From: Eledone cirrhosa
Taxonomy: Eukaryota
Direction: 5' to 3'
DNA: 64,000 nucleotides
Assembly: GCA_964016885.1 (NCBI GenBank)
Contig: OZ024764.1
Span: 25,730,001-25,794,000 of the forward strand
Positions 9,419-58,070 of this stretch are shown here, one piece after another. The notes below the pieces were generated by a model. That model was not told where the DNA came from, searched no databases, and worked only from the letters and a program-made list of their open reading frames with translations. Position 1 is the stretch's first letter. The number at the start of each line of letters is the position of its first letter. A program made the translations under genes and the position numbers.

Positions 9419-9476
9419 ATACCTGATGATGTCACCGGATTCATACGGAACCCGGTCATTGAAATGATCATAGTAT
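9419..9476 (+). ncRNA. Type I hammerhead ribozyme motif (minimal, palindromic stem III)
   Basis: ATAC-CTGATGA-[stem II ACCGG/CCGGT]-GAAA-TGATCA-TA^GTAT. A second family copy lies at 19202-19259. Confidence 0.75.
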
Positions 9477-14094: not shown

Positions 14095-15000
14095 AAACCT
14101 ACCCTTTTAAGAAAACCCACTGTACCAATAGGAAATGTATTATATGTAAAGTAAACCCCGGATAAACTGTAAAACTAGAAACGTAGTCTATAGCATAAGA
14201 TGTACAGAGGGTACTTGCAGAAACATGACAACAACATACATAGGCAAGACAGCTCGTAGCATAGGTGAAAGGATAGACCAACACTGGGGGGAACTAAAAG
14301 GATGAAAAGATGGTTCAGTACTATACGAACATGCCAGACAACAACACGACGGTAACATAGACAACATAGAAATTAGAATAATATCTAAACATAGAAATGA
14401 CTCAGCAGATAGGCAAATCAGAGAGGCCAGTGAAATAGAACTTAGAAGGCCAAGGCTAAACAGAAAGAATGAATGGAATAACAACAACACCCAAACAAAC
14501 AACACTGACCTAAGAGAAATATAAATAAATAAACAAATAAATGCATACACAAGCACAATAACAACAAACACATAGAAATACACACTAGTAAAATAAGATA
14601 GAATACAATAACCACAGTCACCAAAAACGCGAACACACATCAAACACTATACACACACGCAAACGCATGCACAGAGAAGAAGACAAGAATAAATAAATAA
14701 ATAAATAAACAGACTAAATAAAGATGGCGTAGACATACAATACAACAAGAGGAAACATAATAGCAGCACTGACGATGTTGCAGATGTGCAACGAAAGAAC
14801 TTTGTTAGACTATATATATGTGTTTGTGTCTATATTGTATCTGTATTTTTGACCGTTGGTCAGTCAATGGCAACATTGAGGACCGAATAAATTAAATTAA
14901 CCGATATAAAAGACACAGAAGCGAAAACCAACCAAACAGTGAGTGTGTTCTGTTATTAATTCTGGCAATATTATTACACAAATATGACCCTCCCCAAGTA
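14092..15000 (+). mobile_element. Penelope-like element 3' fragment (GIY-YIG endonuclease plus pLTR)
   Basis: CKTRNVVYSIRC...TYIGKTARSIGERIDQH...RQIREASEI..PRLNRKNEW with an internal stop, followed by a hammerhead motif. Confidence 0.85.
14765..14806 (+). ncRNA. Minimal hammerhead motif in Penelope pLTR
   Basis: AGCA-CTGACGA-T-GTTGCA-GATG-TGCAAC-GAAA-GAAC-TT^TGTT. Stem III is weak. Confidence 0.62.
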
Positions 15001-15276: not shown

Positions 15277-15281
<5 letters not shown>

Positions 15282-15860
15282 AGAGACATAAAATAAGAAA
15301 ATTATAAAATTAACTTACTTACTAAAATATCACTTCCAACTAATTAGTTTCTGGAATGGAGTAGATACATCTTCCGAAGAAGGTGTAGAGAAACATCCCG
15401 TCATCAGGAAAGTCAATTCTCATATAAGTTTCCAGGCAAAGCGAGGACACTGGAAGCTTATTAAAAAATAAATCAGTGAATAGGAAATGGCAAAGCGTGG
15501 ACTTAATTCCTAGCCATTGAGAAAATCACTGCCTCTGTGTCCGTAGCAAATTCAAAAAGAATAGAACACGTGACATCGAGGTCAATCGGTGGAAAGTGGG
15601 TTGTTAATAAGACAGCGGCCAGCCTACTACTGTAGCAACAGTCATGGCCAGTATTGCTCGACAAAAGATTTGGAGATAATAATAAAGAATTCATATCTAG
15701 TAACATATATATACATACAAATGCATATCGATGCTAGCAAATATATAGGTTTTGTCTTAATAACATTGTGGTTCAATGCATGGGGTTGCAGAACAATAAT
15801 ATAAGAGACGTAAAATAAGAAAATTATAAAATTAACTTACTTACTAAAATATCACTTCCA
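15277..15860 (-). mobile_element. Retrozyme-like element: 522-nt monomer plus about 62-nt terminal redundancy
   Basis: 15277-15338 is repeated at 15799-15860. Non-coding, TA-flanked, contains a hammerhead and is homologous to the 554-bp repeats starting at 43750. Confidence 0.75.
15333..15412 (-). ncRNA. Type I hammerhead ribozyme
   Basis: CTTTC-CTGATGA-C-GGGATG..(TACACCTTC-TTCG-GAAGATGTA)..CATTCC-A-GAAA-CTAATTAG-TT^GGAAG. Confidence 0.8.
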
Positions 15861-26894: not shown

Positions 26895-28277
26895 ACTGCG
26901 TGGTCGCAGAGGACATCCACTGCTACGGCCTCCACCCGACGGACATACACCAGATTTGTCCTTCACAGTAGACAACACGTACTTCACCTTCCACCACCAC
27001 ACATACAGACAGACAGACAACAGGATTACCCATGGGATCCAGCCTATCGGGCCTGCTGGCCATCACCTACATGAACCAGCTAGAATGCCGAGCCCTCAAC
27101 ACCTGCCATTCCCATGCCTTCTTCACCCGATATGTAGATGACATACTCATCCTTACATCATCCCGTGAGGAGGCAGATAAAATATACACAACATTCTCCA
27201 GCATGGACGCCAGTATAAAGTTCAGCATGGAACACCACGATGACCGCGGATCCCTATCCCTACTGGACTTCCAACTCAGGGTAACAGAGGAAGGCAACAT
27301 CCACACCCGCTTCTATAAAAAAGCCGCCAGCAGGGACCTGTTCGTACATTTCAGATCGGCCCTCCCACTCGGTACCAAGTTCGGATACATAAGGAACGAA
27401 CTGGCACGTATCCGGAACAAAAGCACCGACGTTAGAGACCGAGACACACACACCACACATTTCCTGGAAGTACTCAAACTGAACGGATACACGACATCCA
27501 CCACAAACCGTGCCAGAAAGAACAGAGGACACCACACCCGAGGTGATGACTTGCTTCCTGAAGCTCCCACACTTCAGTGAAGAAACAACAACAGCCATCC
27601 GCAGAGCTATAAGACGAGAGGGACTAGATATCCAACTGGCCCACTCAGGTCCTTCTCTACGCAGACAGCTAACCAAAAGACACTCCACCAGACATGACAA
27701 CTGTTGCAGACTAGCCAACTGCCCCATCAACGACACAGACCTATGCCACCAGGCTTACGTCGTATACAGACTAGAGTGTGACAAATGCAACAACTTCTAC
27801 GTAGGTAGTACCACCAGACCACTCCACATAAGAATAAAAGAACACCTCAATACTAACGCTTCCTCATTTAAGAAACACCTAGATAAATGCAAAAACACCG
27901 ACAAAACCATAACAGTTAGGATAGAAACTAAGGAAAGAAACCTCGGCAATCTTAGAATTAAGGAAGCACTAATTATAGATAAAACACAACCACCAATCAA
28001 TAATAGACTAGAACTCAACACCCAATTTATAACCTGATAGAGCTTCTAGCCCCATATTTACACACACCCCACACACACACGCACGCACACACACACACGC
28101 TTACACCTCCACTTATTCTCTCTCACACATACACACATACACACACAAAACCAGTTCTAACACCAGATAACACCTATCCCCCACATTTACGAATAGACTT
28201 ATCTTCTCACACTCACACACACACACACTCACATACTTACACCTTCATGCATTCTCCCACACACTTAAACAGGCATG

Positions 28278-38104: not shown

Positions 38105-39052
38105 ATGGACTGCATGCAGGAAAAATGTGAAATCAGGAGTCAGCGAAACTGGTCAAAGATTGAACTAGCGGTTTTGATCAAGGGGTGGACCATGGCTGAT
38201 GGGTCTCCACCAAGCAAAAAGATGGCGGAGAACCTGAAGAGCCATGGGTTTCTGAGGACCCTGGCACAGATAGAGAGAAAGAGAAAGGAAATTGAGAAGG
38301 CGTATGTCCTCATAGCGCCTCATATGGCGATGCTAAGCCGTGTCCTCGGGGAGGAGAAAACCGAAGGGAGGGATGAGGAGAAGGAGAGGGAAAAGGAAGA
38401 GGAAAAAGAAAAAGAAAAGGAGGAGAGCACAAGCACGGACCTGAAAGAAAATGATATACCCTCCGCCACAGGCAGGGAGGGCAGGCCGGGCAACCAACAA
38501 GCTAAGGGCAAAGGTGAAAAGCGAAATCACCTTCCGAAGGAGAACCAAGCGCAGAGGGACCAGTGGACAACTGTTCAAAGAAAGAACAGAAAGCACCGAG
38601 ACACTGGGAGCAAAAAACCCCAAGTAATGTGCAAGTTTTTAAAGAACGGGACATGCTGGCATGGAGAGACAGGGATGGGATGCAGATTCGCCCACCCTAG
38701 GTCTCAAACGAACTATGCCCATCATACTCGCGCAACATGCCCCAGCCAAAGCCGAAATAAGCCGCTCCAGAAGTATGCTGATGTCGCGCGTGCTGCACCA
38801 ACAAGGAGAAGGCACGCACATGCCGACGAGATACAGATGGCAGCAGCAGATCAGAAAATTTTTTTAGTGATGGCAGAGAAGATTGTGGGACAGCTGACCT
38901 GGCTGCATCGTCTCCAGAGCCAGGGTCATCCACACCAGCACTCGAGACCACCGCAGTTAAGGGACCCAGAGTGGCCGCCGCTGACACCAGACCAGGTGTC
39001 ATACCGACAGCCATTACTGGCACCCCAAAAGTCACACCAGTGCTGCTGCTGA
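38105..39052 (+). CDS. LINE ORF1 (Myb/SANT-like N-terminus, charged linker, CCCH finger)
   Basis: First ATG after the CT tract at 38105. RNWSKIELAVLIKGW..RTLAQIERKRKEI and CKFLKNGTCWHGETGMGCRFAHP. Confidence 0.72.
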   Translation: MDCMQEKCEIRSQRNWSKIELAVLIKGWTMADGSPPSKKMAENLKSHGFLRTLAQIERKRKEIEKAYVLIAPHMAMLSRVLGEEKTEGRDEEKEREKEEEKEKEKEESTSTDLKENDIPSATGREGRPGNQQAKGKGEKRNHLPKENQAQRDQWTTVQRKNRKHRDTGSKKPQVMCKFLKNGTCWHGETGMGCRFAHPRSQTNYAHHTRATCPSQSRNKPLQKYADVARAAPTRRRHAHADEIQMAAADQKIFLVMAEKIVGQLTWLHRLQSQGHPHQHSRPPQLRDPEWPPLTPDQVSYRQPLLAPQKSHQCCC

Positions 39053-42009
39053 ATGTCAGGGGCCTGGTGAAACTCAGCAACATGAGTAAAATTTCCTACC
39101 TGGGAGACTTAGCCATAAGCAATCAAGCACTATGCATGGCACTAACCGAAACGCACCTGACAAGCAGTATAGCAGATGCAGAAATACATATACCGAAATA
39201 TACTGTATTTCGTTCGCACAGGAAGGAGAGAACTCATGGTGGGGTTGCTCTGTATATCCGTGAAGATGTCACACCAATTGTACTGTTGACACATTCAAAC
39301 TCAGTCTGTGACACACTGATAATACATATGAAGCAACTACAGACGGTAATATGTGTCACATATCGGCCGCCCGATGCCCCCAGTCATGAGGGTAAATTTG
39401 AGGATAGCCTAAGTAGGATAGAAGAGGTCCTTGACAAACTGGACCAGGGTCTCAACATCCTACTGCTGGGAGACTTCAACCTACCAAAGGTCAAATGGCC
39501 TGAGGGCCACCTCCTCCCTGGAATGACGTCAATAGAACAGAGACAGACGGAATCCCTGCTGGCCCTCACACACAGGTTGTTCATGGAGCAAGCAATACTC
39601 CTCCCAACAAGAGGCGAAAATGTCCTGGGCCTCTGTTTTACAAACAACGAAGTGCTCATCCACAATGTAAAGGTGACACCAACAATTCTCTCGGATCATA
39701 ACTTAGTAGAGCTAATGATATGTGGTCCAAGAGAACCAACAGAGACAAAACCACCAAGAAGCTCCGGGATGCTATCCAACCTTAACTTCTACAAGGCTAA
39801 CTGGAAAAAGATTAAGAGTGAAATCCGGAAGCAAACATGGAGTGAAAACATCGCCACACAAGACACTAACACACAATTTCAACACTTCATGACAACGATA
39901 CACACCATATGCAAAAAGTGTGTCCCGGAGAAAGAGGCAAACAAACACAAAAATCTTATTCCCAGAGATAGGAAAATCCTTATGAGACGTAGAACTAAAC
40001 TCTCAAACCAGTTGAATAGTCAACAAAACAAAAACAAGAAGGAATCCTATTTGAAACGTGCACTACTTGACATCGAGATTACATTCAAACTTTCACATGA
40101 GAATGAGAGGGCAAAGAAAGAGAACAGGGCCATAGAAAACATTAAAACAAACCCTAAGGCCTTCTTTAAATTTGCAAAAGAAACTGCCTCAGTACACTGC
40201 AAGATTGGACCACTCTTCCACAAGGACGGTTCATTAACCGAAAATCCCCAAGAGATATGTGAAATACTGAACGAACAGTACAAAAGTGTCTTCACATGTC
40301 CACTGAGGCACATGCAAATAACGAAGCCAGAGGAGTTCTTTGATGCCACACTACATCAAGAAATGGCAACCATCAACCACATAGACATAACGGAGGAGGA
40401 TGTGGTGTACGCCATTGATGAAATTAGAACAGACTCGGCTGTTGGACCTGATGGATTCCCAGCAGTTCTCCTAAAAATATGTAAGCGGGCCTTAGCAACT
40501 CCACTGAAGATGCTCTTCAGAAGCTCCTTGGCTAGCGGTGTACTACCCAGGGAGCTGAAAGAAGGCACAATATGCCCTATCCATAAAGGAGGTAGTAGAG
40601 CGGAGGCCAAGAACTATAGGCCAGTCTCCCTGACGTCGCATATCAGTAAGGTCATGGAGCGAGTCGTCAGAAAGAAACTAATCACTTTCCTCGAAGAAAA
40701 TGACCGCCTGACTAGCACGCAACATGGCTTCCGCCCAGGAAGAAGCTGCCTTACACAGCTGCTACATCACTACGACTGGCTACTGAGACAACTACTAGAC
40801 AGCTCACATGTAGACGTGATATATCTTGACTTTGCGAAGGCCTTTGACAAGGTCGACCACGGAATGATATGTCACAAACTACACGGACTCGGCATAACTG
40901 GAAAAGTAGGTGAGTGGCTGCATGGCTTCCTAAGGGACAGAAGCCAGGCAGTCGCAGCAAATGGGGCCCTCTCGAGGGAAACACCGATAACAAGTGGGGT
41001 GCCCCAGGGGACAGTCCTGGGACCACTACTGTTTTTGGTGGCTCTCTCGGACATGCCCTCTGTGGTGCATGCAACAACATCCCTCACTAGCTATGCTGAT
41101 GACACTAAGGTAGGACAGGCAATCAAAAACCCGGCTGACGCTGCCCTCTTACAGCAGGATCTGGATGCCATATACAGATGGGCGGAAGAAAACAACATGC
41201 AGTTTAATGCTGGCAAATTCCAAGCCCTACAATACAAACCTGCAAACACAAACACAAATATAGCGGAACACAGCTACACAGGACCAGGAGGGACCGATAT
41301 CCCCGTGTCAAAATCGATACGAGACCTGGGCATAGACATGAGCGATGATGCATCTTTTTCTTCACACATCATGAAGGTGGCGACAACATGTAGACGATTC
41401 GCTGGCTGGATCTTGAGGACTTTCCTTACAAGAGATCGAGACACCATGTTGACACTGTGGAGGACTTTTGTCCTAAGCCGCCTGGACTACTGCTCCCAGC
41501 TGTGGTCACCCCATAGTGTCAAACTAACCACGGAGCTTGAGGCAATCCAGCGAAGCTACACCAAGAGGATTGCCAAGATGAGGGAGACAAGCTACTGGGA
41601 GAGGCTAAAGGAACTGAACCTCTACTCCTTGGAGCGAAGACGGGACAGATACGCAGTGATCTACATGTGGAAAATCCTGGAGGGACTAGCACCAAACTTT
41701 GGCATTGGGAGCTGGACCAACCATCGAACAGGACGTCACTGTGTGGTGCCAAAGGTCCCGTCTTCCACATCTAGAATAAGGAGCAGGTATTGCAATAGCC
41801 TGGGATTCAAGGGCCCTCAACTCTTCAACAGGCTGCCGAGGCATCTGCGAGACTTGCATGACGTGGAGGTTGATGTCTTTAAGAAACATCTCGACACCTT
41901 GTTATCCAGGATCCCGGATGAGCCCACAGCAAGACACGAGGGAAACCTAAGGGCTGCAGCAACAAACTCCCTCCTACACCAGTGGCCAACCTATACAGGC
42001 TGGAGATAA
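38971..42009 (+). CDS. LINE ORF2, APE endonuclease plus reverse transcriptase (1012 aa, no stops; true start uncertain)
   Basis: [81 protein letters not shown]. Confidence 0.95.
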
Positions 42010-42468: not shown

Positions 42469-42872
42469 TATACATATACATCATCATCATCATCAACGTT
42501 TAACGTCCGTGTTCCACGCTTGCATGGGTTTGGACGGGGGTAGTCCCACTTGAGGCAAGAGTGATTGTCTTGCTCGCATAGGACTGTCTGGCAGGTTTTC
42601 TACAGTTGGATGCCCTTCCTAACACCAACCACATTTACAGTGTGGGTCTGGAAGGTTTTTACCGTGTTGCCTACACGGCCACATTACAGCGTGGACTGTG
42701 TGTTTTTTTGTCGTGACACCTACACGATCTCATTTGTTTCGGCCTGGCGCGGCACCAACATAACTTTACATAGAACGGGGTGGTGTGGATGGGGTGGGGG
42801 TGGTGGCGGGACGGGGTGTATTTTGTTAGAGATGCCTACTGGGCAGTGACATTGTCTTGGAGAGGTGTATAC

Positions 42873-42911
<39 letters not shown>

Positions 42912-42950
42912 CATATATATACATATATATATATATATACATATATATAC

Positions 42951-42981
<31 letters not shown>

Positions 42982-42982
42982 C

Positions 42983-43040
<58 letters not shown>

Positions 43041-43262
43041 GAAGGAACGATCGACTTTCGTCAAATCGGACCGAGGGAACAATGTTTCCGTTGGTCTTTC
43101 CAATTGCTAATACTATCTATCGGTCGCAACTTCAGGTAGAAGGAGCAACGTGAAATAGAGTGTCTTGCTCAAGGACATAACGCATCGCCTGGTCCAGGAA
43201 TCGAACTCACAACCTTACGATTGCGAATCCAATTCTCTAACCACTCAGCCACACGCCTTCAC

Positions 43263-43379
<117 letters not shown>

Positions 43380-43383
43380 TATG

Positions 43384-43667
<284 letters not shown>

Positions 43668-43675
43668 GATAAATC

Positions 43676-43715
<40 letters not shown>

Positions 43716-43749
43716 GATAAATCTACATATATATATATATATATATATA

Positions 43750-44922
43750 TAAGACGTAAAATAAGAAAATATTTTTTTTTTTAATTTTTAAAAATTTTTT
43801 TACTTACTTACTTAAATTTTCACTCCAACTAATTAGTTTCTGCAATGGGATAAAGACAGTTACGTAATCCAACTGTCGAGAATTCATTGCGTCATCAGGG
43901 AGTCTATTCTCAGCTGAGTCTCCAGACAATGCGCGGACACTGGCGGCTCATATAAAAATAATAATAATTCGGTAGATAGAACAGCTGGCGAGGACTGGAT
44001 TCTATGTACTGAAATTCTCACTGCTTCTAGTCAAATGGCCGATTCTAAAGAATCAATCACGTGACACAGAGGCTAGTTAGAAGGAATGGGATGGTAAGAT
44101 GACTGACGCCTACTAACACCCCAAAAAATTTTTGAAGTGGTTTTGGCAGGTTTGCTCGACAAATCAGTGATTTGGAGATAAATATAGATAATTTAATATA
44201 TCAACTAACATAAGCGCACAGATGCACGTCCATGCCACCAAATACACAGGTTATGTCATAGTACCTAGGTGGTTCAATGCAGGAGGATGCAGAACAATAA
44301 TATAAAAGACGTAAAATAAGAAAATATTTTTTTTTTAATTTTTAAAAAATTTTTTACTTACTTACTTAAATTTTCACTCCAACTAATTAGTTTCTGCAAT
44401 GGGATAAAGACAGTTACGTAATCCAACTGTCGAGAATTCATTGCGTCATCAGGGAGTCTATTCTCAGCTGAGTCTCCAGGCAATGCGCGGACACTGGCGG
44501 CTCATATAAAAATAATAATAATTCGGTAGATAGAACAGTTGGCGAGGACTGGATTCTATGTACTGAAATTCTCACTGCTTCTAGTCAAATGGCCGATTCT
44601 AAAGAATCAATCACGTGACACAGAGGCTAGTTAGAAGGAATGGGATGGTAAGATGACTGACGCCTACTAACACCCCAAAAAATTTTTGAAGTGGTTTTGG
44701 CAGGTTTGCTCGACAAATCAGTGATTTGGAGATAAATATAGATAATTTAATATATCAACTAACATAAGCGCACAGATGCACGTCCATGCCAGCAAATACA
44801 CAGGTTATGTCATAGTACCTAGGTGGTTCAATGCAGGAGGATGCAGAACAATAATATAAAAGACGTAAAATAAGAAAATATTTTTTTAAAAAATTTTTAA
44901 AAAATTTTTTACTTACTTAAAT
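43750..44922 (-). mobile_element. Retrozyme-like tandem dimer (2.1 x 554 bp); also at about 47883-49055 and 51963-53135
   Basis: AGACGTAAAATAAGAAAAT recurs at about 43752, 44307 and 44861. One hammerhead per monomer, no ORF. Confidence 0.78.
43822..43903 (-). ncRNA. Type I hammerhead ribozyme (copies at 44376-44457, 47955-48036, 48509-48590, 52035-52116, 52589-52670)
   Basis: ACTCC-CTGATGA-C-GCAATG..(GACAGTT..AACTGTC)..CATTGC-A-GAAA-CTAATTAG-TT^GGAGT. Confidence 0.83.
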
Positions 44923-45104
44923 CTACCAAAAGTTTACGGCAGTGTCCAATCCGTATGAAGAACTCAATGTAATCCGGATATCATGAAAAGAGGAGATGCA
45001 TTCAAAAACTACTTTCGGTGAAAAATAAACGGAAAACAGAGTCAAGATAAATTATTAAAAAAATAATGAATAAACAAAGAAACAGTTCCTTATATTAAAA
45101 AAAT

Positions 45105-45248
45105 TCATTATTTTACGATCGTTTCTAGGATATATATGTGTTAGAGTTGGTATGCTTATTCTATAGATCTATGTACAATATTTATACAAACTATCAGAGG
45201 GAATATACATACCTTCACATATATATATGCTGTCTTCAGAAATAATGA
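45105..45248 (-). ncRNA. Hammerhead with a stem II insertion of about 107 nt (copies at 49239-49382 -, 53319-53462 -, 57868-58011 +)
   Basis: TCATTATTT-CTGAAGA-[long hairpin]-GAAA-CGATCG-TA^AAATAATGA. 9-bp stem I, palindromic stem III. Confidence 0.75.
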
Positions 45249-46210
45249 TACTTGTTTATTGATAAGAACAAAGATTCAATACAATAGGTCTGTTTGGGAA
45301 CAGGTTTTGAATTGACCAATCAGGAGATAGTGAGGGTCAAGATAGTGATGTAGAATTTGGAGAACCTTAAATTATGGGTAGAGGAAGGGAGATTTCAGTT
45401 TTGGATGGAAAAGAGTATTATGAATGAAGGATTACTTTAGGGAAGAAGTAGGTCATATGTTGACCTCAGAAATAATATTATTTGTTCATTGAATAAAACC
45501 AACAAAGATCCAGTATAATAATGGATTACTTTAGGGAAGAAGTAGGTCATATGTTGACCTCAGAAATAATTTTATTTGTTCATTGAATAAAACCAACAAA
45601 GATCAAATATATTCTGTCTGTTTGGTAAGAGGTTTAGAATTAACCAATAGAAAGTTAATAATTGGCCAAATGGTAAAATAGTAGTAATTGAAACTTATTT
45701 TAGGGGTGAAACTAGGTCAGGTGGTCAGTAGAAGGTATACAAGCAAATGCTGTTATAAAATAGTAATGCCAATACAAATATCTAAGGTGACCAGAGTTTT
45801 AAGATAAGGATGTTAGTGAAAAAAATACATCTATGAAAAGGATATAAAATTAATTTAATTGATGGGTATATTTATATTGATAAAATTATACTAATACATA
45901 TAGATATGATAAATAAGAATTAGATGCAGTTGAAAAGTGCTGTTAAGGATGAGGGGAGATTAAAAGAATATAAAAATGATATATATATGTATATACATAT
46001 ATATATACCTACATATATATACATACATACACACACACATACACACATATATATATATTTATATATATATATATATATATACATACATACACATACACAC
46101 ACAAACATATACCCATATATATATATATACATATATATATACACGCATATACACATGTACATATACATACACACACACACACACAGACATATATATACAT
46201 ATATATATAC

Positions 46211-46243
<33 letters not shown>

Positions 46244-46247
46244 TATA

Positions 46248-46375
<128 letters not shown>

Positions 46376-46376
46376 C

Positions 46377-46555
<179 letters not shown>

Positions 46556-46959
46556 TATACATATACATCATCATCATCATCAACGTTTAACGTCCGTGTT
46601 CCACGCTTGCATGGGTTTGGACGGGGGTAGTCCCACTTGAGGCAAGAGTGATTGTCTTGCTCGCATAGGACTGTCTGGCAGGTTTTCTACAGTTGGATGC
46701 CCTTCCTAACACCAACCACATTTACAGTGTGGGTCTGGAAGGTTTTTACCGTGTTGCCTACACGGCCACATTACAGCGTGGACTGTGTGTTTTTTTGTCG
46801 TGACACCTACACGATCTCATTTGTTTCGGCCTGGCGCGGCACCAACATAACTTTACATAGAACGGGGTGGTGTGGATGGGGTGGGGGTGGTGGCGGGACG
46901 GGGTGTATTTTGTTAGAGATGCCTACTGGGCAGTGACATTGTCTTGGAGAGGTGTATAC

Positions 46960-46998
<39 letters not shown>

Positions 46999-47037
46999 CA
47001 TATATATACATATATATATATATATACATATATATAC

Positions 47038-47068
<31 letters not shown>

Positions 47069-47069
47069 C

Positions 47070-47127
<58 letters not shown>

Positions 47128-47349
47128 GAAGGAACGATCGACTTTCGTCAAATCGGACCGAGGGAACAATGTTTCCGTTGGTCTTTCCAATTGCTAATAC
47201 TATCTATCGGTCGCAACTTCAGGTAGAAGGAGCAACGTGAAATAGAGTGTCTTGCTCAAGGACATAACGCATCGCCTGGTCCAGGAATCGAACTCACAAC
47301 CTTACGATTGCGAATCCAATTCTCTAACCACTCAGCCACACGCCTTCAC

Positions 47350-47466
<117 letters not shown>

Positions 47467-47470
47467 TATG

Positions 47471-47752
<282 letters not shown>

Positions 47753-47760
47753 GATAAATC

Positions 47761-47796
<36 letters not shown>

Positions 47797-47804
47797 GATA
47801 AATC

Positions 47805-47848
<44 letters not shown>

Positions 47849-50344
47849 GATAAATCTACATATATATATATATATATATATATAAGACGTAAAATAAGAA
47901 AATATTTTTTTTTTTAATTTTTAAAAATTTTTTTACTTACTTACTTAAATTTTCACTCCAACTAATTAGTTTCTGCAATGGGATAAAGACAGTTACGTAA
48001 TCCAACTGTCGAGAATTCATTGCGTCATCAGGGAGTCTATTCTCAGCTGAGTCTCCAGACAATGCGCGGACACTGGCGGCTCATATAAAAATAATAATAA
48101 TTCGGTAGATAGAACAGCTGGCGAGGACTGGATTCTATGTACTGAAATTCTCACTGCTTCTAGTCAAATGGCCGATTCTAAAGAATCAATCACGTGACAC
48201 AGAGGCTAGTTAGAAGGAATGGGATGGTAAGATGACTGACGCCTACTAACACCCCAAAAAATTTTTGAAGTGGTTTTGGCAGGTTTGCTCGACAAATCAG
48301 TGATTTGGAGATAAATATAGATAATTTAATATATCAACTAACATAAGCGCACAGATGCACGTCCATGCCACCAAATACACAGGTTATGTCATAGTACCTA
48401 GGTGGTTCAATGCAGGAGGATGCAGAACAATAATATAAAAGACGTAAAATAAGAAAATATTTTTTTTTTAATTTTTAAAAAATTTTTTACTTACTTACTT
48501 AAATTTTCACTCCAACTAATTAGTTTCTGCAATGGGATAAAGACAGTTACGTAATCCAACTGTCGAGAATTCATTGCGTCATCAGGGAGTCTATTCTCAG
48601 CTGAGTCTCCAGGCAATGCGCGGACACTGGCGGCTCATATAAAAATAATAATAATTCGGTAGATAGAACAGTTGGCGAGGACTGGATTCTATGTACTGAA
48701 ATTCTCACTGCTTCTAGTCAAATGGCCGATTCTAAAGAATCAATCACGTGACACAGAGGCTAGTTAGAAGGAATGGGATGGTAAGATGACTGACGCCTAC
48801 TAACACCCCAAAAAATTTTTGAAGTGGTTTTGGCAGGTTTGCTCGACAAATCAGTGATTTGGAGATAAATATAGATAATTTAATATATCAACTAACATAA
48901 GCGCACAGATGCACGTCCATGCCAGCAAATACACAGGTTATGTCATAGTACCTAGGTGGTTCAATGCAGGAGGATGCAGAACAATAATATAAAAGACGTA
49001 AAATAAGAAAATATTTTTTTAAAAAATTTTTAAAAAATTTTTTACTTACTTAAATCTACCAAAAGTTTACGGCAGTGTCCAATCCGTATGAAGAACTCAA
49101 TGTAATCCGGATATCATGAAAAGAGGAGATGCATTCAAAAACTACTTTCGGTGAAAAATAAACGGAAAACAGAGTCAAGATAAATTATTAAAAAAATAAT
49201 GAATAAACAAAGAAACAGTTCCTTATATTAAAAAAAATTCATTATTTTACGATCGTTTCTAGGATATATATGTGTTAGAGTTGGTATGCTTATTCTATAG
49301 ATCTATGTACAATATTTATACAAACTATCAGAGGGAATATACATACCTTCACATATATATATGCTGTCTTCAGAAATAATGATACTTGTTTATTGATAAG
49401 AACAAAGATTCAATACAATAGGTCTGTTTGGGAACAGGTTTTGAATTGACCAATCAGGAGATAGTGAGGGTCAAGATAGTGATGTAGAATTTGGAGAACC
49501 TTAAATTATGGGTAGAGGAAGGGAGATTTCAGTTTTGGATGGAAAAGAGTATTATGAATGAAGGATTACTTTAGGGAAGAAGTAGGTCATATGTTGACCT
49601 CAGAAATAATATTATTTGTTCATTGAATAAAACCAACAAAGATCCAGTATAATAATGGATTACTTTAGGGAAGAAGTAGGTCATATGTTGACCTCAGAAA
49701 TAATTTTATTTGTTCATTGAATAAAACCAACAAAGATCAAATATATTCTGTCTGTTTGGTAAGAGGTTTAGAATTAACCAATAGAAAGTTAATAATTGGC
49801 CAAATGGTAAAATAGTAGTAATTGAAACTTATTTTAGGGGTGAAACTAGGTCAGGTGGTCAGTAGAAGGTATACAAGCAAATGCTGTTATAAAATAGTAA
49901 TGCCAATACAAATATCTAAGGTGACCAGAGTTTTAAGATAAGGATGTTAGTGAAAAAAATACATCTATGAAAAGGATATAAAATTAATTTAATTGATGGG
50001 TATATTTATATTGATAAAATTATACTAATACATATAGATATGATAAATAAGAATTAGATGCAGTTGAAAAGTGCTGTTAAGGATGAGGGGAGATTAAAAG
50101 AATATAAAAATGATATATATATGTATATACATATATATATACCTACATATATATACATACATACACACACACATACACACATATATATATATTTATATAT
50201 ATATATATATATATACATACATACACATACACACACAAACATATACCCATATATATATATATACATATATATATACACGCATATACACATGTACATATAC
50301 ATACACACACACACACACAGACATATATATACATATATATATAC

Positions 50345-50377
<33 letters not shown>

Positions 50378-50381
50378 TATA

Positions 50382-50677
<296 letters not shown>

Positions 50678-51081
50678 TATACATATACATCATCATCATC
50701 ATCAACGTTTAACGTCCGTGTTCCACGCTTGCATGGGTTTGGACGGGGGTAGTCCCACTTGAGGCAAGAGTGATTGTCTTGCTCGCATAGGACTGTCTGG
50801 CAGGTTTTCTACAGTTGGATGCCCTTCCTAACACCAACCACATTTACAGTGTGGGTCTGGAAGGTTTTTACCGTGTTGCCTACACGGCCACATTACAGCG
50901 TGGACTGTGTGTTTTTTTGTCGTGACACCTACACGATCTCATTTGTTTCGGCCTGGCGCGGCACCAACATAACTTTACATAGAACGGGGTGGTGTGGATG
51001 GGGTGGGGGTGGTGGCGGGACGGGGTGTATTTTGTTAGAGATGCCTACTGGGCAGTGACATTGTCTTGGAGAGGTGTATAC

Positions 51082-51120
<39 letters not shown>

Positions 51121-51159
51121 CATATATATACATATATATATATATATACATATATATAC

Positions 51160-51190
<31 letters not shown>

Positions 51191-51191
51191 C

Positions 51192-51249
<58 letters not shown>

Positions 51250-51471
51250 GAAGGAACGATCGACTTTCGTCAAATCGGACCGAGGGAACAATGTTTCCGT
51301 TGGTCTTTCCAATTGCTAATACTATCTATCGGTCGCAACTTCAGGTAGAAGGAGCAACGTGAAATAGAGTGTCTTGCTCAAGGACATAACGCATCGCCTG
51401 GTCCAGGAATCGAACTCACAACCTTACGATTGCGAATCCAATTCTCTAACCACTCAGCCACACGCCTTCAC

Positions 51472-51588
<117 letters not shown>

Positions 51589-51592
51589 TATG

Positions 51593-51876
<284 letters not shown>

Positions 51877-51884
51877 GATAAATC

Positions 51885-51928
<44 letters not shown>

Positions 51929-53259
51929 GATAAATCTACATATATATATATATATATATATATAAGACGTAAAATAAGAAAATATTTTTTTTTTTAATTT
52001 TTAAAAATTTTTTTACTTACTTACTTAAATTTTCACTCCAACTAATTAGTTTCTGCAATGGGATAAAGACAGTTACGTAATCCAACTGTCGAGAATTCAT
52101 TGCGTCATCAGGGAGTCTATTCTCAGCTGAGTCTCCAGACAATGCGCGGACACTGGCGGCTCATATAAAAATAATAATAATTCGGTAGATAGAACAGCTG
52201 GCGAGGACTGGATTCTATGTACTGAAATTCTCACTGCTTCTAGTCAAATGGCCGATTCTAAAGAATCAATCACGTGACACAGAGGCTAGTTAGAAGGAAT
52301 GGGATGGTAAGATGACTGACGCCTACTAACACCCCAAAAAATTTTTGAAGTGGTTTTGGCAGGTTTGCTCGACAAATCAGTGATTTGGAGATAAATATAG
52401 ATAATTTAATATATCAACTAACATAAGCGCACAGATGCACGTCCATGCCACCAAATACACAGGTTATGTCATAGTACCTAGGTGGTTCAATGCAGGAGGA
52501 TGCAGAACAATAATATAAAAGACGTAAAATAAGAAAATATTTTTTTTTTAATTTTTAAAAAATTTTTTACTTACTTACTTAAATTTTCACTCCAACTAAT
52601 TAGTTTCTGCAATGGGATAAAGACAGTTACGTAATCCAACTGTCGAGAATTCATTGCGTCATCAGGGAGTCTATTCTCAGCTGAGTCTCCAGGCAATGCG
52701 CGGACACTGGCGGCTCATATAAAAATAATAATAATTCGGTAGATAGAACAGTTGGCGAGGACTGGATTCTATGTACTGAAATTCTCACTGCTTCTAGTCA
52801 AATGGCCGATTCTAAAGAATCAATCACGTGACACAGAGGCTAGTTAGAAGGAATGGGATGGTAAGATGACTGACGCCTACTAACACCCCAAAAAATTTTT
52901 GAAGTGGTTTTGGCAGGTTTGCTCGACAAATCAGTGATTTGGAGATAAATATAGATAATTTAATATATCAACTAACATAAGCGCACAGATGCACGTCCAT
53001 GCCAGCAAATACACAGGTTATGTCATAGTACCTAGGTGGTTCAATGCAGGAGGATGCAGAACAATAATATAAAAGACGTAAAATAAGAAAATATTTTTTT
53101 AAAAAATTTTTAAAAAATTTTTTACTTACTTAAATCTACCAAAAGTTTACGGCAGTGTCCAATCCGTATGAAGAACTCAATGTAATCCGGATATCATGAA
53201 AAGAGGAGATGCATTCAAAAACTACTTTCGGTGAAAAATAAACGGAAAACAGAGTCAAG

Positions 53260-58070
<4,811 letters not shown>

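Follow-up and report, generated by a model that had tools for sequence, protein, structure and literature searches.

Two-ended insertions of a hammerhead retrozyme family in Eledone cirrhosa carry the tail signature of Penelope-like elements

Introduction

Animal non-LTR retrozymes are described in the accessible text of Cervera and de la Pena (2020, PMC7229834) and of Li, Clavereau and Pollet (bioRxiv 10.64898/2026.07.22.740005) as non-coding head-to-tail units of 51-972 bp with a GC content below 50% and no LTR, each unit carrying one type I hammerhead with a weak palindromic stem III. Circular retrozyme RNAs were shown in coral, mussel and axolotl (PMC7229834), and one of nine Xenopus retrozyme dimers was cleaved in vitro (bioRxiv 10.64898/2026.07.22.740005). 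The link of retrozymes to Penelope-like elements (PLEs) has come from co-occurrence and from pLTR homology; a PLE origin is argued in the same preprint, whose accessible text includes no mollusc among the samples. According to the available part of a review (PMC7761336), animal retrozymes carry no motif that would indicate their helper.

The second group of relevance comprises the canonical EN+ PLEs of the Neptune/Nematis type (PAc of Frangieh et al. 2024, PMC11167929; Craig et al. 2021, PMC8557442). Their tail is an extension at one end only, reported as 30-40 bp; it is defined by two internal start sites of reverse transcription; cutting and extension take place on both strands of the DNA, and the protein is predicted to form a dimer (PMC11167929, accessible text). 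The origin of the tandem and inverted structures of PLEs, as well as their presence in microsatellites, are named as open questions in PMC8557442. The same source describes non-autonomous PLEs of Chlamys, such as MRC1, as elements without coding capacity that a PLE mobilises and that insert as several copies joined head to tail.

A repeat family of Eledone cirrhosa is described here that combines features of these systems. In a literature search that left most subscription papers outside, no cephalopod retrozyme, no tail signature in retrozymes and no PLE-made microsatellites were found. Neither "ribozyme" nor "retrozyme" occurs in the accessible main text of an octopus repeat annotation (PMC13282606), and 235 hammerheads were counted in a giant squid paper, as far as its text was available. 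An unnamed entry for the family may already exist in Dfam or Repbase.

Sequences and Sample Sets

The window, i.e., the whole stretch of DNA that was analysed, comprises 64,000 nt of contig OZ024764.1 (assembly GCA_964016885.1), and all positions refer to it unless stated otherwise. Similarity searches with two units gave 771 and 2,167 candidates, 40 of which were scored for each. Insertion ends were mapped in 73 loci taken in genome order (132 arms) and in 63 loci chosen by their ribozyme (105 arms). For the covariation analysis 36 hammerheads covering the subfamilies were picked by hand from 121 distinct ones, and visibly decayed copies were left out.

Results and Discussion

The locus: The minus strand at 43752..44922 carries a retrozyme insertion of subfamily A that consists of 2.1 units with a period of 554 nt and 99% identity between units. 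The copy is 5'-truncated about +13 to +17 past the cleavage site, and its 3' end coincides with a short start site, S (43746..43760, minus strand, approximately +75 to +81 past the cleavage site), at which reverse transcription is presumed to have begun. Two identical type I hammerheads are present (43822..43903 and 44376..44457, minus strand, with CUGAUGA cores at 43898-43892 and 44452-44446). Each has ACUCC/GGAGU as stem I, followed by CUGAUGA and an additional C; GCAAUG/CAUUGC forms stem II, which holds an inner hairpin, and after an additional A come GAAA, the palindromic stem III ACUAAUUAGU and the GUU site. The hammerhead consensus predicts cleavage between GUU and GGAGU, that is, between 43827 and 43826 and between 44381 and 44380; because these cuts lie 554 nt apart, exactly one monomer (43827..44380, minus strand, the predicted circle, read from 44380 to 43827) would be releasable. 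A tail of about 120 nt (44178..44305, minus strand) separates site S from site L, the long 3' end (about +200, 44178-44184), and the most conserved block outside the ribozyme is found at its start.

A preliminary description of this DNA had reported head-to-tail 554-nt monomers, each with one minus-strand hammerhead, as a large tandem family. The arrangement of the monomers stands, but the array is limited to 2.1 units: the other four units of the window are not separate insertions, since they lie inside a 4.1-kb block that occurs in three head-to-tail copies (42480..54638), with the second and third copies of the insertion at 47885..49055 and 51965..53135 (minus strand). The block copies differ in 2 of 2,224 columns, and the triplication is either a recent duplication or an assembly artefact. 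Nor is the family mainly a large tandem array elsewhere, for only 47 of the 132 arms exceed one unit.

The diverged 522-nt relative of that description was found at 15281..15859 (minus strand) as a copy of a second subfamily, B, with a unit 68% identical to the 554-nt unit. It contains the stems quoted, but comprises only 1.1 units, i.e., one 522-nt unit plus the short end, with its 5' end at the cleavage site and a single hammerhead (15332-15413), in which stem I is one pair longer than had been given (ACUUUC/GGAAGU). The atypical C-A at the base of stem II is present in both units, as had been stated.

At its 3' end the 43752..44922 insertion adjoins a (TA)n tract (43263..43751) in which GTAGATTTATCTAC, the last bases of the long end of a neighbouring Penelope-like element, is repeated. 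The 3' part of this Neptune-type element, PLE-N, occupies 44921..45975 (minus strand); its long end (44921) is joined to the retrozyme 5' end, and its hammerhead (core 45239-45233) has the same C-A mismatch. A two-armed PLE-N insertion spans 53134..58070, with an inverted arm to the long end (53134), a broken RT/GIY-YIG frame on the plus strand (54949-56420) and a short end near 58070. Since the PLE-N hammerhead precedes the retrozyme on its strand, read-through could free a chimeric RNA of about 733 nt bounded by both ribozymes (45113-44381, minus strand).

Size and composition of the family: The core-plus-stem-III pattern has 10,294 exact matches in the genome (3.0 Gb) and its reversed form none, so the hammerhead unit is not a chance occurrence. 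A 28-nt block after the ribozyme (the tail block) has 6,525 exact matches genome-wide, and its reversed control likewise has none. Clustering of 60 full monomers gave at least 10 subfamilies with units of 511-560 nt that are 71-93% identical. The preliminary description had regarded the unit as longer than usual for animal retrozymes; this does not hold, since the size lies inside the 51-972 bp already reported (bioRxiv 10.64898/2026.07.22.740005), although it exceeds the 170-400 nt of the circles shown by experiment in the accessible literature, the Eledone circle being a predicted one.

The units are non-coding (no ORF above 67 aa on the sense strand), have a GC content of 36-37% and lack an LTR arrangement, as do animal non-LTR retrozymes. 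The units carry a type I hammerhead with an intact core and a non-canonical extra A before G12. Consecutive hammerhead units occur in the window (two) and in the 30 of 132 arms that cross two or more cleavage sites, and arrays of five or more units that reach or pass the ends of the loci were found at L217, L257 and L261; these are possible source arrays. The units have no open frame with RT plus GIY-YIG, the mark of an autonomous Penelope-like element. Folded as circles, all eight monomers considered were more stable than their shuffled counterparts (z -2.1 to -5.2, 20 shuffles each), and the antisense energies were similar. This family is a genuine addition to the animal retrozymes, high in copy number and recently active. 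It differs from those described in that its copies are mostly dispersed short insertions with inverted arms, in its GUU site and long interrupted stem II, and in two fixed ends with microsatellite flanks, which are without description in the accessible text of PMC7229834 and bioRxiv 10.64898/2026.07.22.740005.

Among the sequencing runs checked for transcripts none is recorded as RNA; contigs from four runs of unspecified kind contained subfamily variants only, without ends or strand. Two of the runs examined, X4 and X6, are labelled as two other organisms and gave 1-3 contigs with a depth of about 3 that are up to 98-99% like subfamily A; either contamination or a related species would account for them. 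The motif GTCACGTG is retained in nine of ten subfamily representatives, and a B-box-like GGTTCAATGC was seen on the antisense strand of the tail (window positions 44057-44065 and 44271-44280 for the two together); a promoter role for them is a guess.

Hammerhead structure: Among the 36 hammerheads 91% of the cells pair, and both partners have changed in 10 of the 21 base pairs. One pair of stem II takes the four forms A-U, G-C, C-G and U-A, and a second is found as either U-A or G-C. Cells with a change on both sides number 95, compared with 30.4 ± 6.1 after shuffling, a contrast that is inflated by the relatedness of the 36 hammerheads and is not to be read as a probability; slid registers also fall far short. 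Stem III has no telling variation. The compensating helix changes noticed earlier between two units therefore hold across subfamilies and are real in stem II. The pairing of the inner hairpin was also claimed; its structure is kept, but its tip is out of register between lineages and is only 60.7% paired. Of the 26 core columns 21 are invariant across 10 subfamilies, whereas outside the core the figure is 245 of 527 (p = 0.0009); the block around the short end has 47 invariant columns of 60.

The hammerhead fold lies 2.5 (A) and 3.3 kcal/mol (B) above the local minimum-energy fold, the region in B folds no better than its shuffles (z -0.72), and the palindrome could form a duplex of -9.0 kcal/mol. 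No match of the hammerhead was obtained in Rfam at the gathering threshold or with E up to 10. We infer that the ribozyme would be slow and, weakened by the GUU site, the C-A mismatch and the 3-bp palindromic stem III, would probably act as a dimer or with the help of a protein. A mismatch at the base of stem II has a counterpart in the axolotl hammerhead HHR_Amex2, in which a U-U takes the place of the C-A and which still cleaves (PMC7229834, accessible text). PLE hammerheads with one more base between positions 9 and 10.1 and an intact G10.1-C11.1 have been described (PMC4209133); the extra A opposite the additional stem II base is not described in the accessible text of either source.

Type I hammerheads of other, unrelated repeat families occur in the window at 9423, 14769, 19206, 20886/20911, 24372, 30999/31036 and 58556; in many of them the foot of stem II has either a mismatch, U-U or A-A, or one additional base. 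More hammerheads of unrelated repeat families lie in the flanks of the loci analysed.

Two fixed ends: Two 3' ends about 120 nt apart recur throughout the family, S at +57 to +81 and L at +175 to +203 past the cut. One or the other terminates 120 of the 132 arms of the loci in genome order and 91 of the 105 arms of the ribozyme-chosen loci, and a TA-rich or (TC)n run adjoins 211 of 216 S/L ends. The common 3' end at a TA tract given in the preliminary description is thus present, but it is only one of two. Head-to-head arm pairs with typical ends invariably combine a short with a long end: S+L was found in 83 of 83 pairs from three sets (39 + 17 + 27, the first of which under-samples S+S while the other two do not), and neither S+S nor L+L occurred. 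A further 26 inverted pairs in these sets carry an atypical end.

The two-end structure of the retrozyme copies is the PLE tail. PLE-N has the same geometry, with S at about +65, L at about +200 and a tail of about 130 nt, and S+L in all five inverted pairs with both ends readable (L080, L093, L095, L098 and the window). The tails of the retrozyme and of PLE-N differ in length from those of the canonical elements; that of the retrozyme is 3-4 times the reported 30-40 bp (accessible text). Truncation at the 5' end, partial tandems, head-to-head inverted copies and an AT-rich target, the hallmarks of PLE mobilisation, were all found. Mobilisation by Penelope, a surmise in the preliminary description, has in the S/L ends and the S+L rule its structural evidence, and we regard PLE-driven mobilisation of the retrozyme as very likely.

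Spread at the DNA level, by unequal crossing-over or duplication of a satellite in which the ribozyme is a fossil, would fit the six window units, which do stem from a triplication of DNA, and those C3 loci that are segmental duplicates. Against it stand the dispersal of the copies over many chromosomes, the constancy of their 3' ends and the scatter of the 5' ends, the inverted arms, the S+L rule and the compensatory stem changes; already contradicted by the structure of the ends, this explanation is extremely improbable.

PLE-N and the search for a helper: Intact copies of PLE-N contain frames of 834 aa. No Pfam family was found for the 834-aa protein; it was recognised as a PLE protein from sequence motifs and homologues, one with PF01541 and one from Argonauta, and the label Neptune-type is a sequence-based assignment from its Zn-finger. 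Unlike PLE-N and the other canonical EN+ elements, the retrozyme contains no RT/endonuclease ORF, and it has no sequence homology to the sampled PLE ends.

The unit could nevertheless be the pLTR of an unseen autonomous PLE; the short copies would then be ends of that element, truncated or tandemised, and no RNA replicon in their own right. In Xenopus, retrozymes and PLE pLTRs are homologous (bioRxiv 10.64898/2026.07.22.740005, accessible text), the retrozyme layout matches that of PLE-N, and of the 56,919 PLE endonuclease candidates a part was covered. Against this, a profile of 10 monomers run over 54 PLE loci and the window matched retrozyme copies only and no PLE end, and no similarity between the unit and three PLE proteins was found. 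Nor does a junction of the unit to an ORF recur in 185 loci, in which an arm either passes in register into a further unit or breaks off at one of many scattered positions. A parent element was not found in PLE-N loci and 14 neighbouring Neptune-like fragments, and two relaxed patterns recovered only variants of the retrozyme family. That the unit is such a pLTR and not an independent replicon is quite improbable. For the adjacent coding element, which the preliminary description had allowed as the source of the repeat, the matter is clearer: the unit is not its pLTR, since it has no detectable sequence in common with PLE-N and no recurring ORF junction.

An AT-rich similarity of the retrozyme to the antisense strand of PLE-N was weak (E 0.003) and was rejected. 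Past the retrozyme 3' end the PLE end sequence occurs again, which makes it less likely that the 43752..44922 copy was inserted together with PLE-N through a template switch.

By its geometry the helper is likely a Neptune-type PLE. Two other Neptune-like PLE families with a hammerhead and two 3' ends were noticed at L190 and L191; their GTCGAG motifs (CTCCAAAT..TTGTCGAG in L191) resemble the block just past the long site of the retrozyme, and these families are possible leads to the helper. Further Penelope-type fragments with GIY-YIG ends are present in the window at 14300-14800 and 26972-28037, the former with a minimal hammerhead (14769) behind it, unrelated to the subfamily B copy and on the other strand. 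The window also contains an open frame of 1,075 residues (38782-42009), which we take to encode a LINE endonuclease and reverse transcriptase.

The template, circular or linear: The cleavage site is crossed by 102 of the 132 arms, and about nine in ten passages run through it. A cleaved linear monomer is ruled out as the template, since arms cross the site and exceed one unit. The 5' ends are near random; a pile-up at the cleavage site was looked for and proved weak, with 14 ends at +1 to +20 (0.51 compared with about 0.27 per 100 nt overall, p = 0.019, uncorrected and in one of 7 zones). Shared-variant differences, for which 176 of the 185 loci were used, amount to 0.25% between tandem units and 0.39% between two arms, compared with 2.59% between loci of one subfamily; tandem units and arms of one insertion hence represent one haplotype. 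At most one such difference between units was found in 90 of 106 tandem loci. Six of the 106 are mosaics with three or more differences, a number that a single circle would yield only if templates were switched. At L114 and L157 single arms mix units of two haplotypes, which suggests template switching or conversion.

A ligated circle is favoured by the combination of a conserved ribozyme with read-through of its site and by arms that share one haplotype, and we consider a circular intermediate likely. The same PLE-driven element might instead be copied from a linear, mostly uncleaved multimer transcribed from longer arrays, the ribozyme trimming the 5' end or serving as a protein-binding fold and circles having no part. 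Such a template would agree with the weak features of the ribozyme, the existence of long arrays, the few mosaics such as L114 and L157 and the slight 5'-end excess described above. It would also agree with the small share of Xenopus dimers cleaved in vitro (one of nine), with the finding that ribozyme cleavage is dispensable for PLE insertion in vitro (PMC11167929, accessible text) and with non-autonomous head-to-tail PLEs known to lack this ribozyme (MRC1, PMC8557442). The comparison with Chlamys is limited by the source's own account, in which most of these elements carry no hammerheads, resemble their helper at the 3' end and belong to green algae and a different PLE clade. The conservation of the catalytic positions across 10 subfamilies and the frequent read-through speak against a linear multimer; the near-uniformity of the units within tandem loci also counts against it, except that homogeneous source arrays would look alike. 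We hold this alternative to be unlikely, though far less so than the two discussed before.

Microsatellite runs at the start sites: Among 44 TCT-type L ends, 21 have runs of (TC)5+ ahead of (TA)n; such runs are found at none of 66 L ends of the TTCTT type, none of 5 other L ends and none of 125 S ends, including the 57 S ends that begin with TCTC. Where counted, the runs are 5-18 units long, compared with 1-2 units in the locus's own internal copy of the site. Homologous empty-like sites were obtained for 3 of 130 loci, of which only L117 was informative: its empty site has (AT)4-5, compared with about 50 and 90 units in the filled one. Pre-existing (TC)n(TA)n targets were considered as the source of the TC runs and rejected; they cannot explain most of the runs, since a matching (GA)n lies behind the (TA)n of the other end in only 2 of 14 two-armed cases. 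The (TC)5+ pattern suggests a stuttering, telomerase-like start. We propose that copying was reiterated at initiation and that ordinary slippage came afterwards; slippage is also known to add repeats in LINEs.

Proposed course of an insertion: Taken together, the non-coding hammerhead repeat probably spreads as a non-autonomous, PLE-mobilised retrozyme by way of a self-cut circular RNA. Transcripts of more than unit length would be cut slowly by the ribozyme and likely ligated into circles of 510-560 nt, with a host ligase closing the monomer. An enzyme of a Neptune-type PLE would likely copy these circles into (TA)n sites, where a probably dimeric PLE protein would nick both DNA strands and reverse transcription would start at S and L, one per strand. 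Starts on opposite strands would yield two arms head to head, one ending at the short and the other at the long site. Each start would likely stutter on the template dinucleotide and so add (TC)n or (TA)n, and synthesis would pass the cleavage junction and halt at near-random positions.

More tentatively, and with somewhat more doubt than confidence, it may be proposed that a PLE dimer starts twice on a single ribozyme-made circle, with one subunit per DNA strand and at sites 120 nt apart, and that each start reiterates the template dinucleotide as telomerase does. PLEs and retrozymes would then write many of the (TA)n and (TC)n(TA)n microsatellites of the genome, rather than merely land there.

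Conclusions

Retrozymes as a class are known; what is new here is the anatomy of the insertions, namely the PLE tail signature on a retrozyme itself, with a strict rule of one short and one long end in 83 insertions. With an RNA of 550 nt and an intact 834-aa PLE frame available from the same genome, the questions of the tandem and inverted structures and of the microsatellites become testable in the existing in vitro system. If the reading of a dimer that stutters at its starts is true, retrozymes would record the PLE reverse transcriptase working in vivo.
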